Origin: a virus
Lineage: Duplodnaviria > Heunggongvirae > Uroviricota > Caudoviricetes
Reading direction: 5' to 3' (one strand)
DNA length: 64,000 bases
Virus record (IMG/VR): IMGVR_UViG_2740892229_000011
The stretch's first letter is position 1. The number at the start of each line of letters is the position of its first letter. The notes beneath the pieces are model-generated. The model did not search any database. It saw nothing but the letters and a program-made list of their open reading frames with translations, and was not told the DNA's origin. Below are positions 57,465 to 64,000 of the stretch, piece by piece. The translations under genes and the position numbers were made by a program.

Positions 57465-58058
57465 ATGATTGCAGCCGAAAAAATCAAACAGCGAAAGCGC
57501 GACAACTCTCTTCGTGACCTCTGGAGAACACCTGATTGGCTGTTTTCTGCCATTCAACGTTATCTTGGAGTGACATTTGATGTTGACGTTGCCTGCAACA
57601 AGGACAATGCAAAGCTGCCTATTTTCATAGGCGTTGAGCGCGATGCTTTGAAATCTGAATGGGGGCAGCCAGGTACAATTGCCTTCCTCAATCCACCCTA
57701 CTCCAAAATCTCCCCCTGGATTGATGCGGCTATACGTGAGCAGGCTCGCGGAGTTACAACAGTGATGCTAATTCCTCAATCCCTCGATACAAAGTGGTAT
57801 GAGCGTGCAACAGAGTGTGCGAATGAGACGATTATTCTGTCTGGTGGCCGCGTAGCGTTTGTCGAGCCTGACGTCAATTTGGGTCAGGTAGAAGTAAACA
57901 TCAACCCCGGTGGCAGTATGCTCGTTGTTTTTCGAGGATTCTGTCAGGACGCTGGGCACTCTATAAGCAAGATCCCTTTGGACGTCATGAAAAGTCTGGG
58001 AGGGTATGATCCTGCGAATGTGATCAGGAAAAAAAGACCATCAAAGAAGGCTGCTTAG
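57465..58058 (+). CDS. Phage-type DNA N6-adenine methyltransferase (Dam-like)
   Basis: 'FLNPPYSKISPWIDAA' (NPPY catalytic motif); 197 aa. Confidence 0.7.
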   Translation: MIAAEKIKQRKRDNSLRDLWRTPDWLFSAIQRYLGVTFDVDVACNKDNAKLPIFIGVERDALKSEWGQPGTIAFLNPPYSKISPWIDAAIREQARGVTTVMLIPQSLDTKWYERATECANETIILSGGRVAFVEPDVNLGQVEVNINPGGSMLVVFRGFCQDAGHSISKIPLDVMKSLGGYDPANVIRKKRPSKKAA

Positions 58059-58473: not shown

Positions 58474-59056
58474 TAGATAAGTACAAACTATTCATAAAGT
58501 GAATTGTAAGTGCTAAGATCTGATAGTTTCCAGTCGTAGACTGGAGGCTCGACCTGATGGGTGGGGGTAAGCGTCACTGGCGTCAGGTTTAAAAAAGCTC
58601 ACTACCAGCGTAGAACCGGTGCCGTATAGGTGTCGGGGAAGGGGGAACCAAAGTGAGCGGAGACAAGGGTCACTTTATGATTGTCGAGTCTGGGGTGTTT
58701 CGAGAGGTTGAATCCAGTACTCCCCTTCATAAAGTGTGGGAAGATCTCGGTTCTGGGGTGCTGTCATCCATAACTTCCCAAGTCTAAGCTGGCAGTAGAC
58801 TTAGACCATAGCTTTTCAGGTTATGAAACGACCAGGTTGGTGAGGAATTTTATACTCACCTCCCTGGGAGAGTATTACCTGAAAAGACAACCTCTCACTT
58901 CGTTCGAGGTGAACTTCACTCACTTCGTTCGTTCAGTTCAGGTTTATAAAAACCTGTTCTGGGAAGTAATTTGTTTATTTTAATAATTATTAACACGCAC
59001 GCGTGTGCGCACGCGCGAGGAAAAAAATCGGCGCGGCGCTTGATTCAGGAGTTTAT

Positions 59057-59647
59057 ATGACGACGAAGACACCAGCCCGATCGCAAGCAAAAACTCGCAA
59101 AAAAGCCAAAAACAAAAATTCTCCCCGCACCAATCCCACAACGCCTGTCGTAGAGTTCAATCCCCAGCTTAAAACCGTGAAAATCTTCAGTGATGGCTCT
59201 TGCCTTAAAAATCCGGGTGGCCCGGGCGGTTACGGTATCGTTCTTCAGTATCGTGGAGAGGAACGCGAGTTCTCAGATGGTTTTCATAGCACCACCAATA
59301 ACCGCATGGAGATGATGGGGGCACTTATCGGGCTGGAGCGTTTGAAATATCCATGCAACGTTATTTTGCACTCTGATAGCCAGTATCTGAAAAACGGCAT
59401 GACACAGTGGATGAAATGGTGGAAACGCAATGGATGGATGACTTCTGACAAAAAACCGGTAAAGAATGTTGATCTGTGGAAGCGTCTGGATGAGGCCGCA
59501 AGTCGACATAATGTTCGCTGGAAGTGGGTTAAAGGTCACGCCGGGCATCGTGAAAATGAAATATGTGATCGACTCGCGAAGATCGCAGCTTTTTCAGCAG
59601 CAGATATGCCTCACAAGAAAGATATTGGTTTTGTTTATAACAAGTAG
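59057..59647 (+). CDS. rnhA: Ribonuclease HI
   Basis: '[23 protein letters not shown]', '[10 protein letters not shown]', '[23 protein letters not shown]', '[22 protein letters not shown]' match RNase H family signatures; start set at ATG 59057 after 'aggag'. Confidence 0.8.
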
Positions 59648-59795: not shown

Positions 59796-60290
59796 ATGGC
59801 ACGTCAAACCTATTTCACTTCTGCAACTAAACGTCCTCGTTCTTTACGTCAAATTTTGGCCGAATTATTTAGCGGTCGTGTTATGTCACGTCTTGATGAA
59901 CTAGAGACTACCGTTCGGTTGCTGAATGAACGTTTAGATAATCAAGCGTCAGTTGTTGCGAACGTGGGGGCGATTGTTGCCTCTGGTTCTTCACGCGAAG
60001 CGAAAAATGCACGGCCTTTAGTGAAGGAGAAAAACAACAAGGACAGTTCGAATGGAAAATTTTCAAAGAAAGAGGCTGAAACCAATGGCCTACGTTCTCA
60101 TTATAGTTTCACTGGCGACGGTAGCCGTTCCAGCCGGTCAGTGCCTTTTGATGCCGGATTCATCCATCACCACACCTTCGTCGACGACAATTACCACCAC
60201 TCCAGTGGAGCGTCCTGTCACTCTGGATGGGATGGCGGTGGATGCGATACCTCAAGTTCATCCAGTTACTCAGGATCATGCTGTGACTAA
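59796..60290 (+). CDS. Hypothetical protein with Ser/Cys-rich C-terminus
   Basis: 164-aa ORF; low-complexity tail. Confidence 0.3.
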   Translation: MARQTYFTSATKRPRSLRQILAELFSGRVMSRLDELETTVRLLNERLDNQASVVANVGAIVASGSSREAKNARPLVKEKNNKDSSNGKFSKKEAETNGLRSHYSFTGDGSRSSRSVPFDAGFIHHHTFVDDNYHHSSGASCHSGWDGGGCDTSSSSSYSGSCCD

Positions 60291-60581: not shown

Positions 60582-61007
60582 ATGTTAGGTTTCTTCAAAA
60601 AGAAAACTCGTAAAGCAGTTATCGAAGTCAAAAAAATGGAGAACCGTGATGCGGTTGAGGCCACCGTGTGGGGCGCGTACATGATCTCCTATGCCGACGG
60701 CACATGTGACGCAAAAGAAATTGCCATTCTTGAGAAGACAATTGCAGCTCTGCCTGCGTTTTCTCCGTTTGCTGGTGAAATTGCCCAAATGAGCGCCAAT
60801 ATCCGTGCTCGTTACGAAGCGTCCCCTCGTTCTGCTAATGCACAGGCTATTCGTGAGCTGTCTGATATTGCGGGTACTCCAGAGGCGGTCGATGTTCTGT
60901 GTCTGTGCCTTGATATTGCCGATCAGGATGGCATTGGTGAACAAGAAGAGCAGGCACTGAAAAAGATCGCCCAGGCGCTTCAGTTGTCACTGGATGCTTA
61001 TCTCTAA
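60582..61007 (+). CDS. TerB-like (tellurite-resistance TerB domain) protein
   Basis: 'WGAYMISYADGTCDAKEIAILEKTIA...VLCLCLDIADQDGIGEQEEQALKKIAQAL' resembles the TerB helical metal-binding fold as recalled; 141 aa. Confidence 0.5.
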   Translation: MLGFFKKKTRKAVIEVKKMENRDAVEATVWGAYMISYADGTCDAKEIAILEKTIAALPAFSPFAGEIAQMSANIRARYEASPRSANAQAIRELSDIAGTPEAVDVLCLCLDIADQDGIGEQEEQALKKIAQALQLSLDAYL

Positions 61008-61304
61008 TGCTTGAGAGATTCCGGCTTGTGATCGTCATTGCTCTTCTGGTGATGGCGGTGTTGGTGGATTTTACGGGAAAGATGATGTCTGTCATTTCTG
61101 ATGGCGTCCTCATTGGTTTGGCGATCTACTTCGCTTATCCGTTAGTTCGTAAAGCAAAGTGTTAATGACAAGGGCCATTTGGCCCTTGTGTTTCGTTGAC
61201 CGAAATAGAGAGTTTGCACCTTTACGTTTAGCTTGCTCCCCTCATATGCCACATCACAATAAAGCCAATAAGAAAACAACTTGTTTAAGCATTAAGGAAA
61301 ACAC

Positions 61305-61871
61305 ATGTGCGAGAAATGCAAAGCAATAGCTGATGAACAAAACGCCCTATTCGAAGAAATGGATGCTAATGAACTTGTCAAAATGTTAGCCATTCTTCGA
61401 GGAATAGAAGACGTTTCCATATTTGAGAGACTGTTTACAATACTTAATTTTAATTCCACCTTTGAAGAGCCAACTCAGATTGTAGCTTTGGCACACCATT
61501 TCGGTGTTCATTACCTTGCTGAAAAAGAGAGAGTTGATAAGTTGCAAGCGACTTTGGATATGGTGAGCGAGACTCAAGGAACTCATGACGGTAACAAAAG
61601 TGAGACGATTATTGCCAGCAAAGATCGTGAAATTGCCGGGCTTAAATCCTCTCTAATGATGTTGATGTCTGCAATTAACCTTATGTCTTCTAAAGCAGGT
61701 TATAAAATGCCATCACTAAACAGCGACGATCCGATGGCCGTTCGCCAGCTTTTAGGTGCAATGGCCGACCAGCTCGACGACACAAAGAGTCGCCTTGAAG
61801 ACATGATGCGGGAGCTCACGCATCGCCATGACTTGAATAAGCAGCCGCACAAAACGCAATACGCACTCTAA
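61305..61871 (+). CDS. Hypothetical protein
   Basis: 188-aa ORF preceded by the 'agaaaacaacttgtttaa' palindrome. Confidence 0.4.
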   Translation: MCEKCKAIADEQNALFEEMDANELVKMLAILRGIEDVSIFERLFTILNFNSTFEEPTQIVALAHHFGVHYLAEKERVDKLQATLDMVSETQGTHDGNKSETIIASKDREIAGLKSSLMMLMSAINLMSSKAGYKMPSLNSDDPMAVRQLLGAMADQLDDTKSRLEDMMRELTHRHDLNKQPHKTQYAL

Positions 61872-62012
61872 TACTGCACCAGTCGACAGGGGGCGAAAGC
61901 CCCCATTTTTACGCCTTTAATCTGCTGTAACGCCTATGAATACAGCTTTTATGCCTTTTCAAGTTTGCGATAATTACACCAATCAGAAAACAAATTATTT
62001 AATGGTGTAATT

Positions 62013-63701
62013 ATGAATACAGCCCTTTCCATCATCGACGATGCCAGCTCAAACACGGCTATCGACTATCGTCAGGAAATGAATGTCATCCACGAAATCG
62101 TGGCCGAGTGCGAGAAAGAGATCGCCTTCATGTATCAGGTACACGACTTCGTTTATGGCGACGAACGCCACAACATGATTAATCGCCTGCTGAGACTAAA
62201 CCATCGACCAGATGAAGATCGCTCGCGTTTAAATCGAGGTTGGTTGGATAAAGTCGATCTGGAATGGGTGAAACAGAATATTTGGGCCGAGTACTGGAGG
62301 AAGGTCACGGACATGACTAACGTTTTGCTGATCATGCCAGCTTCCCGTCGAGATGAGTGGCGCGAGCAGTTTATAGAGGGCAAACAGGAAGTCATCAAAA
62401 CTGACAGAACCGGCTACCAGATGAAGGTTAAAGAGTTCGTTGGTGTACCGGAGTTCAAAGCAGAAACGGTCATACCCACGATGCTTAATTTGCTGAATGA
62501 CAGGCACAAATATCTCTCTGAGCGCGTGTATGGCTTGTTTAAGGCGCTGAGTCCTGCGCACAAGACAAATAAGACAAACGGTTTCAGCGAGCGTCTGATA
62601 ATCGCTGACTGCATTTCTGATTTCTGGCGGGACAGCGTTAGCGTGAACTATCGCAAAGAGGACTACATCGACGATCTGCGTGTCTTGCTTCATTTCTTCG
62701 CGCACAAAGAATTTATTACCATCAACCGCACTGCTGAGGTGCTATCAGCTGCGTATCGGGCAAACGACTGCCAGACCGGTGACTGGATGAACGTCGATGG
62801 AAATCTGATGCGCGTGAAGATGTTCAAGAACGGCAACGTTCACTTTGAAATACATCCTGACGTGGCCTGGAAGTTGAATGAGGTGCTGGCTTACAGTATG
62901 CCTGCTGCAATCCCCGCGCCATGCCGAACTGCGCCAAAAACACGGGCACCAAAGCAGTTCGGGTTAATCCAGAAGACGATCTCCATGCCGGTTCGCACTG
63001 CGCTTCGTGACGGGCGATTGAGCAAAGACAAAGGCGTATGGTACTTCTCTGATTCAGCTCTCCAGAAGTCGCAGGTGGAAGAGCTTGAGCGCACACTGAG
63101 CTTCATTGGCGGCGTGCAGGAGAAAAAGCACTGGCAGTTCCCGTATGAGATCGGCCATACGCTAAATACGATTGTGGCTACCGGATTAATACCGGATACA
63201 AAATCACACCAGTTCTACCCTACCCCACGCTTGATTGCTGAGTACGTTGCCAGAGCCACTGAATTGAAGCCTGGTGAGAAGCTGCTGGAGCCTCAAGCCG
63301 GACGTGGGGATCTTCTGGCCTATATTAACGCCGATCTGGAAGATGTTACCTGTATAGAAATCGCACCTCTCTTCGCTGATATCCTGCGTGGAAAAGGGTA
63401 TACGAACACGATTTGCTGCGACTTCATAAAGTGGTCTGAGGACAACGCAGGTTATCAGTTCGACAAAATCGTTATGAACCCGCCGTACTCGCTTGGTCGT
63501 CATAGAGAGCACACGATGGCTGCGCTGGGGCATCTGAAAGTCGGCGGGCGTCTTGTAGCAGTATTGCCGGGCACTGCACCAATACTGGACTGGATGACGA
63601 TGGATAATTACGTTTATGCCAGAGGGAAGTCGTTTACCAACGAGTTTGAAGACACAGGGATCACAGTCAGCGTATACGTTTTCAAACGCGTTAAAAGATA
63701 G
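62013..63701 (+). CDS. Two-domain protein: N-terminal domain of unknown function fused to C-terminal N6-adenine DNA methyltransferase
   Basis: C-terminal SAM-binding motif 'LLEPQAGRGDLL' followed by catalytic 'VMNPPYS'; about 400 N-terminal residues without a recognisable motif. Confidence 0.55.
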   Translation: MNTALSIIDDASSNTAIDYRQEMNVIHEIVAECEKEIAFMYQVHDFVYGDERHNMINRLLRLNHRPDEDRSRLNRGWLDKVDLEWVKQNIWAEYWRKVTDMTNVLLIMPASRRDEWREQFIEGKQEVIKTDRTGYQMKVKEFVGVPEFKAETVIPTMLNLLNDRHKYLSERVYGLFKALSPAHKTNKTNGFSERLIIADCISDFWRDSVSVNYRKEDYIDDLRVLLHFFAHKEFITINRTAEVLSAAYRANDCQTGDWMNVDGNLMRVKMFKNGNVHFEIHPDVAWKLNEVLAYSMPAAIPAPCRTAPKTRAPKQFGLIQKTISMPVRTALRDGRLSKDKGVWYFSDSALQKSQVEELERTLSFIGGVQEKKHWQFPYEIGHTLNTIVATGLIPDTKSHQFYPTPRLIAEYVARATELKPGEKLLEPQAGRGDLLAYINADLEDVTCIEIAPLFADILRGKGYTNTICCDFIKWSEDNAGYQFDKIVMNPPYSLGRHREHTMAALGHLKVGGRLVAVLPGTAPILDWMTMDNYVYARGKSFTNEFEDTGITVSVYVFKRVKR

Positions 63702-63760
63702 GTAAATACTTACTTAATTTGTGTAAGAATGTAGTTACTAAACGATAAGAGAAAAACACA

Positions 63761-64000
63761 TGAACAACCTCCAGTTAGAGCATTTTAACGTCACAGGCCA
63801 TTCTGATTTTCCTTTCAAGTTTACATTGAAAGGTTATGCAGAGGATGCGGTAGGCCAGATCATTATTGATAAAGGCATCGTTAAGTTTGAGGGGAATTTT
63901 GATGAATCCGCGAAAACATTCATAGACTTCGTTGCCAAACGTTGGAGCGAGCAATGGAAAGACCTGGAAAAGCGCGCTAGTGAGTTTGATCGGTTCATGG
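63761..64000 (+). CDS. Hypothetical protein, 3' end truncated by window edge
   Basis: ORF opens at ATG 63761 after 'aagagaaaaacacatg' and is still open at nt 64000. Confidence 0.4.

Follow-up and report, generated by a model that had tools for sequence, protein, structure and literature searches.

A DUF4942-methyltransferase fusion protein of an SSU5/pHCM2-type phage-plasmid, a probable orphan DNA adenine methyltransferase

The viral sequence IMGVR_UViG_2740892229_000011 (Caudoviricetes), analysed as a stretch of 64,000 nucleotides (hereafter the window), carries at 62013-63701 on the forward strand a gene whose 562-residue product joins a DUF4942 module to a minimal methyltransferase core. 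With a probability put at roughly 60%, this protein is an orphan DNA N6-methyladenine (m6A) methyltransferase with an anti-restriction role, both the DNA substrate and the role being predictions. The reading draws on the domain anatomy of the protein, the invariance of its motifs, its solitary context, its modularity, its distribution, and its niche among the early and establishment genes of mobile elements, all of which the analysis shows.

The open reading frame is real, as an earlier note made from the DNA letters had it, running from an ATG at 62013 to a stop codon that ends at 63701 (562 residues plus stop). The encoded protein is 100% identical to RefSeq WP_033803593.1, labelled ‘DUF4942 domain-containing protein’; its orthologue in phage SSU5, SSU5_095, is labelled ‘DNA methyltransferase’, and PHROG 6263 (‘DNA methyltransferase’) matches residues 1-561 over the whole of its profile (1-548/548, E 1.1e-299). 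The DNA of the region is 100% identical to NZ_CP027358.1, plasmid unnamed3 of E. coli 2013C-4991, 96-97% identical to the Escherichia phages Cyrano and CMS-2020a, and 88% identical to Salmonella phage SSU5, and the window therefore comes from an SSU5/pHCM2-type phage-plasmid. Further orthologues are found in Klebsiella phage-plasmids. Of 5426 complete E. coli genomes, 251 (~5%) carry the gene, with 256 matching places, 247 of them on plasmids. Judged by its hundreds of homologues with invariant motifs, the reading frame is no chance feature; as a gene it is ordinary, being already catalogued in RefSeq and PHROGs, with its domain in Pfam, and it would not surprise a specialist. In the literature on DUF4942, on SSU5/pHCM2 methyltransferases and on phage-plasmid methylation, no experimental characterisation was found.

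A confident AlphaFold (AF2) model (mean predicted local distance difference test score 83.2, predicted template modelling score 0.70), combined with alignments and with the module boundaries seen in relatives, divides the protein into five parts, all encoded on the forward strand. Residues 1-82 (62013-62258) form a disordered tip and a helical hairpin in the model and are variable, with 8-30% identity in distant members. Residues 83-305 (62259-62927), delimited by profile and alignments, are the DUF4942 core, the most conserved module, and are followed by a basic linker, residues 306-324 (62928-62984; isoelectric point 11.3), which harbours a recombination breakpoint and just before which stand-alone DUF4942 proteins end. 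Residues 325-395 (62985-63197) make up a small α/β domain, H-E-E-H-E-E-H in the secondary structure of the model, that is the least conserved folded module. The remainder, residues 396-562 (63198-63698), is a class-I S-adenosylmethionine (SAM)-dependent methyltransferase core of seven strands, recognised from its motif order X-I-IV-VI-VIII, the model, Foldseek and profile searches.

Within this core, a motif X-like HQFYPTP lies at 63207-63227 (QFYPTP at residues 400-405, with QFYP-P invariant in the alignment), the SAM-binding motif I, LLEPQAGRGDL, at 63282-63314 (residues 424-434), and the motif IV NPPY, which is mostly NPPF in the family, at 63477-63488 (residues 489-492). They are followed by a motif VI-like LKVGGRLVAVLP at 63534-63569 (residues 508-519, strand β5), aligning with M.TaqI LLKPGGVLVFVVP, and by NEFEDTG at 63639-63659 (residues 543-549), a putative motif VIII. 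Over 27 members, which share 34-87% identity with the window protein, no variation occurs in QFYPTP, P427-A429-G430, N489-P490-P491, F545 and T548. The earlier note had placed the SAM motif and NPPY correctly; its picture of motifs confined to the last 150 or so residues, with almost no sequence behind them, needs adjustment, as the core spans about 167 residues including motif X, and 70 residues follow NPPY. In the model, where the seven strands occupy residues 424-426, 445-449, 465-468, 483-488, 508-519, 533-542 and 551-559, those 70 residues form β5-β7, and the predicted catalytic fold is therefore complete, a minimal class-I Rossmann-type core. What stands of the original claim is that the protein ends 70 residues after motif IV and so has no C-terminal recognition domain.

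A profile of residues 325-562 searched against solved structures ranked adenine-specific DNA enzymes at the top, with M.TaqI at 1.2e-5, EcoR124 HsdM at 2.7e-5 and an adenine-specific DNA methyltransferase at 5.6e-5, and with KsgA, RsmC and Erm behind them at 8e-4 to 1e-2. PADLOC models matched over residues 394-523 (mad2, 2.6e-15; the Type II methyltransferase model MTase_II, 2e-10), and Foldseek, with the predicted structure as query, returned a probability of 1.00 to HsdM, M.TaqI, CamA and M.BseCI.

The architecture is widely shared. An exhaustive search with residues 1-395 only as query yielded 612 clusters at E <= 1e-3. From its 149 newly listed matches, 134 are at least 480 residues long, and 131 of these 134 full-length relatives carry NPP[FYW] (108 NPPF, 21 NPPY), with a median distance of 70 residues to the C-terminus. 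The earlier note was right to see a separable N-terminal module joined to an N6-adenine-type core; with so many relatives built alike, however, this is no one-off fusion. Members are known from phage-plasmids across Enterobacterales, from IncHI2 plasmids, from Pseudomonas phages, under contradictory annotations, and from lambdoid-type prophages of Variovorax and of an Enterobacterales bacterium. The prophage members lie in early regions, adjoin cI/Cro-like, lambda-P-like and ERF/RecT genes and have other solitary methyltransferases (PF01555, C5) as immediate neighbours, and no neighbouring gene is conserved across the distant family.

Searches for a partner were negative. Among 16 neighbouring proteins, PADLOC and Pfam detected no restriction, defence or nuclease component; no endonuclease is annotated within +/- 10 kb, no HsdS-like gene lies nearby, and the annotations of SSU5, Klebsiella pJN2-26, the prophages and IncHI2 show no endonuclease beside the relatives. 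As the gene has neither an endonuclease nor a defence partner, here or in its relatives, these searches support the orphan (solitary) status that had been proposed for it. Among the Pseudomonas phage members, Dolphis gp121 (locus L007) is labelled ‘RE endonuclease’ and MR13 gp23c (L008) ‘restriction alleviation protein, Lar family’; the domains present, DUF4942 and a methyltransferase core, support neither label, and both therefore look like annotation errors.

The N-terminal region, in which no recognisable motif had been seen, turned out on profile search to contain Pfam DUF4942 (PF13708), matched at residues 140-295 with 74 bits against a cut-off of 25 (E 1.7e-20) and, by hhalign, at residues 83-303. 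All 14 diverse N-terminal regions taken from the family match DUF4942, and a Pfam scan of the same 14 at E <= 5 returned nothing besides it. Sequence and profile searches of the region against Protein Data Bank sequences gave no match below E 0.06, and Foldseek against the viral predicted structures of BFVD gave two weak matches, both to uncharacterised phage proteins. DUF4942 is functionally uncharacterised and has no solved structural relative.

This module also exists on its own in conjugative plasmids. A tblastn search with residues 80-330 matched at least 4,991 plasmid records, and 3,889 were conjugative among the matches listed. The homologue of an IncI-type plasmid (IncI-gamma/K1 by MOB-suite) is a 282-residue protein consisting of the DUF4942 module alone (Pfam E 4e-51), which aligns with the family by hhalign at a probability of 98.8% (E 7.6e-17; residues 83-303 aligned to 78-281) and ends exactly at a conserved ...LPPR motif. 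Its gene adjoins oriT/nikA, where the ssb-parB-psiB-psiA-ardA leading region ends, while in pOXA-48-type IncL plasmids the DUF4942 gene lies in an establishment block amid RadC/JAB, DGQHR, Hha, DUF1380, KlcA and ssb genes; in both plasmid types, no methyltransferase gene stands beside it. A published survey of leading regions (PMC11541004, supplement) lists the DUF4942 family (YdiA), on the T-strand, with 2171 members, a false-discovery-rate p of 0 and a median position from oriT of 1, and counts it with the largest families whose genes are enriched at the foremost leading-region position.

Fused and stand-alone forms are homologous over residues 83-303, share the invariant residues W95, T102, W116, Q119, P146, L179-S180, T185-N186, L222, G274, H277, P282, N289 and P301, and both occur in mobile elements amid establishment and anti-defence genes. 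The stand-alone proteins, at about 282 residues, differ in having neither the small domain nor the methyltransferase core, nor the β-hairpin at residues 124-142, which is an insertion in the fused form. The loop S180-x4-T185-N186 is poorly ordered in the AF2 model and would fit a ligand-contact loop.

Conservation is distributed unevenly over the fused proteins. Compared with the window protein, the SSU5-type member P0015 is 95% identical in the DUF4942 core and 83% in the methyltransferase core, P0044 is 96% and 49% identical, respectively, and the Xenorhabdus members P0100, P0105 and P0106 are 59-61% and 51-56% identical. Residues 325-395 reach only 17-65% identity where the methyltransferase core stands at 39-79%. 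P0044 is a clean mosaic, of the window type over residues 1 to ~300 and of the Klebsiella type beyond, where 30-residue sliding windows are 87-100% identical to the Klebsiella-type member P0062. In addition, phrog_9133 matches residues 328-561 as a single block inside a family of 1259-residue phage proteins. From this block and the mosaic it follows that the small domain stays with the core, DUF4942 being exchanged independently.

These observations bear on the claim of the earlier note that target recognition must reside in the roughly 400-residue N-terminal region. On that account a target-recognition domain comprising the whole N-terminus, DUF4942 included, would precede the catalytic core in a permuted order. 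Methyltransferases normally vary most in their recognition domains, whereas DUF4942 is the most conserved part of this one, at 95-96% where the core falls to 83% or 49%, and a role as specificity domain is therefore disfavoured. The module moreover occurs by itself in IncI and IncL plasmids, beside no methyltransferase gene, recombines as a unit near residue 300 in mosaics, and showed no detectable similarity to HsdS, to the C-domain of M.TaqI or to the recognition domains of MmeI/PglX. The argument for the entire N-terminus is weakened on each of these grounds, and the account is considered unlikely. Judging from the alignments, DUF4942 is probably not a classical variable recognition domain, and residues 325-395 are a candidate for a specificity element.

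In the mechanism proposed here, the C-terminal 167 residues, with motifs X, I and IV, would be the catalytic unit, and the small variable α/β domain at residues 325-395 may contribute substrate or sequence recognition. The enzyme would methylate adenines of the phage-plasmid's DNA as this replicates or becomes established, modifying host DNA incidentally, and this methylation would blunt restriction as the phage-plasmid enters new hosts. Motifs and profile matches make N6-adenine methylation of DNA the likely activity, and anti-restriction is by analogy the most plausible role, as orphan methyltransferases protect entering plasmids in the case shown for M.EcoGIX (PMC7736820, PMC4288162) and evasion of restriction is established for other orphan enzymes of phages. 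DUF4942 may serve establishment in some conserved way, for instance by binding to DNA or to a host or replication factor that is itself conserved, and might position or time the methyltransferase on incoming or replicating DNA, although this targeting idea, taken specifically, is doubtful. Equally tentative is a broader proposal, that DUF4942 might be an autonomous establishment or anti-defence module. On this proposal it would work by itself in thousands of conjugative plasmids, its gene being expressed before all others from the strand that enters; in phages, phage-plasmids and IncHI2 plasmids it is fused to a minimal adenine methyltransferase, and methylation would in that form be coupled to DNA entry or replication. 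Such coupling could run, for example, through the binding of single-stranded or nascent DNA, or of a conserved host replication or defence factor, in analogy to the association of M.EcoGIX with PolI.

A number of points weigh against an anti-restriction DNA methyltransferase directed by DUF4942. In pESBL, the 849-bp gene Hp22, equated with the DUF4942 gene by synteny and size only, could be dispensed with both in plasmid maintenance and in transfer to a laboratory recipient (PMC4288162). No methylome or biochemical data for the family were found in the literature. The Pfam N6_Mtase family (PF02384) scores 13.6 bits, below its cut-off of 20.4. Finally, Foldseek also finds the RNA methyltransferases TrmN, Trm11 and RlmL-type enzymes at E-values like those of the DNA enzymes; as HsdM, TrmN, M.TaqI, Trm11, CamA and M.BseCI all fall at ~1e-7 to 1e-6, structure search alone cannot separate the two groups, and DNA is for this reason rated only as the likely substrate.

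The structural ambiguity gives an opening to an RNA methyltransferase, acting on rRNA or tRNA and producing m6A or N2-methylguanine (m2G) in the RNA of the host or of the element itself. Its Foldseek neighbours include RlmL/YcbY, aTrm5 and KsgA alongside TrmN and Trm11, several members give weak Pfam MTS matches, there are weak, sub-threshold NCBIfam matches to KsgA and Erm, and NPP[FY] is found in m2G RNA methyltransferases too. Yet the NCBIfam RNA methyltransferase models score only 11-19 bits against cut-offs of 171-675, DNA adenine methyltransferases rank first when the family profile is searched, and Pfam scans detected no THUMP, PUA or other RNA-binding domain. The motif QFYPTP, which we take to resemble motif X of the γ-class DNA amino-methyltransferases, and a genomic company of DNA methyltransferases and DNA-entry genes also tell against RNA as the substrate, leaving this explanation improbable. 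A different kind of alternative accepts the methyltransferase fold but regards it as a remnant that is inactive or at most binds SAM, DUF4942 being the functional, anti-defence or establishment part, as it presumably is in the stand-alone versions. Here the conservation of DUF4942 above that of the methyltransferase core, its independent existence elsewhere and its strong enrichment at the first leading-region position would fit; the core, however, is unlike a decaying domain, with catalytic and SAM motifs invariant down to ~34% identity, NPP[FYW] in 131 of 134 relatives and a complete, confidently modelled fold, and a remnant has little to recommend it.

Least credible of all is a single-polypeptide restriction-modification or defence enzyme of Type IIG/IIL-like design with DUF4942 as its nuclease, for which one can cite the label of the family member Dolphis gp121 and a weak PADLOC match to REase_MTase_IIG (E 1e-3) that covers the methyltransferase motif region only. 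Orthologue labels conflict with one another (‘Lar restriction alleviation’, ‘DNA methyltransferase’, ‘RE endonuclease’), no nuclease family or fold was detected in residues 1-395, and the invariant residues include no PD-(D/E)XK, HNH or GIY-YIG pattern. Carriage by phages and in the leading regions of plasmids likewise favours counter-defence over defence.

Set beside characterised systems, the predicted orphan adenine methyltransferase of the window is nearest in its catalytic part to the γ-class enzymes M.TaqI and HsdM, which are its best sequence-profile matches among solved structures and also structural neighbours. It shares with them a class-I Rossmann core, the order X, I, IV, VI-VIII, NPPY/NPPF and a (F/Y)(F/Y)-TP-like motif X. 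It differs in having neither a C-terminal recognition domain nor an HsdS partner, in a much smaller core (167 residues), in a sub-threshold N6_Mtase score, and in the 395-residue N-terminal extension of DUF4942 and small domain, to which those enzymes have no counterpart.

In terms of biology, a comparison can be drawn with M.EcoGIX and M.BceJIII, which are likewise adenine methyltransferases of mobile elements that have no restriction partner, and whose leading-region niche in plasmids is shared by the DUF4942 module. Both are single-strand-specific, encoded in leading regions and proven to act in anti-restriction on entry into a new host (PMC7736820). M.EcoGIX is, however, a β-class enzyme with DPPY and without DUF4942 (PMC7736820), whereas motif I precedes NPPY in the window protein, so that M.EcoGIX is a functional analogue and not a relative. 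Known traits of M.EcoGIX are its single-strand preference, its SAY motif and its association with PolI. Membership of M.EcoGIX or M.EcoGII in the same family was considered and rejected, as both are β-class.

A further likeness is to the giant phage proteins of PHROGs 15406, 11358 and 10691 (2789-3925 residues), internal segments of which match the core at residues ~396-520. One protein labelled ‘DarB-like antirestriction’ matches the core as well, and the place of the window gene in its phage genome is likewise that of an early or DNA-metabolism gene. In these other proteins the core is joined to helicase or other modules in place of DUF4942, and the likeness, at ~25-40% identity, concerns the catalytic core only.

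If the enzyme is active, SSU5-type elements, which are able to carry resistance genes, would be helped across restriction barriers between Enterobacterales. The main open interest lies in the role of the DUF4942 module, for which the fused form and its natural mosaics offer a simple genetic route to function. Should DUF4942 prove to be an autonomous module, the fusion would open one of the largest uncharacterised gene families of leading regions to direct experiment on its function. That the fused form can be linked to the oriT-proximal stand-alone family is no discovery, but it is a helpful lead.

The gene is also a target of bacterial immunity. A 32-nucleotide spacer in the chromosomal type I-E CRISPR (clustered regularly interspaced short palindromic repeats) array of E. 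coli AST85 matches it perfectly at 62688-62719 on the forward strand. The array is located between iap and cas2e, and the matching spacer is the one nearest cas2e (locus L013, 1201-1233), presumably the leader side. The bases flanking the match fit an ATG-type protospacer-adjacent motif on the complementary strand, and it follows from the perfect match and this motif that natural CRISPR immunity targets the DUF4942-methyltransferase gene of the phage-plasmid. Nine chromosomal matches to the gene occur among the complete E. coli genomes, the AST85 spacer being the one inspected.

According to the annotation of the identical plasmid, the gene sits in a long block of genes, all in one direction, for DNA metabolism and early functions, which runs, up to the gene, through nrdB, thymidylate synthase (thyA), DHFR, an AAA ATPase, a 3'-5' exonuclease, a Dam-like methylase, RNase HI, a TerB-like gene, DUF3927 and a hypothetical protein of 188 residues. 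Downstream of it are two hypothetical genes and then one for an HD-domain protein. The upstream gene ends in a hairpin resembling an intrinsic terminator (GGGGGCGAAAGCCCCC, then a T run) at 61889-61910 on the forward strand, detected by a terminator scan and also kept in SSU5 and Klebsiella phage pJN2-26. With this terminator-like hairpin (61889-61904) lying between the upstream gene and the methyltransferase gene, the latter probably has its own promoter. A candidate lies at 61945-61975 on the same strand, where a three-way alignment shows a conserved stretch, CTTTTAYGCCTTTTC ... GATAAT (61969-61974); a scan for the sigma-70 consensus made no call on it.

A perfect 12-nucleotide inverted repeat, ATAATTACACCA / TGGTGTAATTAT, occupies 61970-61981 and 62003-62014, its right arm overlapping the ATG and a weak GGTG ribosome-binding site, and the corresponding RNA hairpin folds with a z-score of -2.5. 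As an operator or translational hairpin it was rejected; it is not conserved, compensatory changes are lacking in SSU5 and pJN2-26, and the repeat is probably incidental. An Rfam scan of 61000-64000 returned nothing meaningful.

Four further features of this block may be recorded. The separate Dam-like methylase pointed out in the earlier note is confirmed at 57465-58058 on the forward strand, ~4 kb upstream, as a second solitary methylase of 197 residues, matching PF05869 (E 1.7e-37) and TIGR01712 (‘phage N-6-adenine-methyltransferase’; 112.5 bits against a cut-off of 97), a family that presumably takes in enzymes reported as non-specific adenine methyltransferases (Hia5-type). The RNase HI gene at 59003-59647 (forward strand; rnhA in the annotation of the identical plasmid) starts with GTG, and its product is extended at the N-terminus by ~60 residues, a stretch rich in basic residues, the usual size of RNase HI being ~155 residues. 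At 59796-60290, also on the forward strand, a hypothetical protein of 164 residues has a C-terminal tail rich in His, Ser, Cys and Gly (...HHHTFVDDNYHHSSGASCHSGWDGGGCDTSSSSSYSGSCCD), which may bind metal or may simply be of low complexity, and neither Pfam nor PADLOC matched this protein. Just upstream of the methyltransferase gene, at 60582-61165 (forward strand), a TerB-family (‘tellurite/colicin resistance’) gene stands with a gene for a small DUF3927 membrane protein; the pair is kept in the Klebsiella relatives and replaced in SSU5 by an anti-repressor (Ant) gene, which marks this position as a variable spot in the early region.

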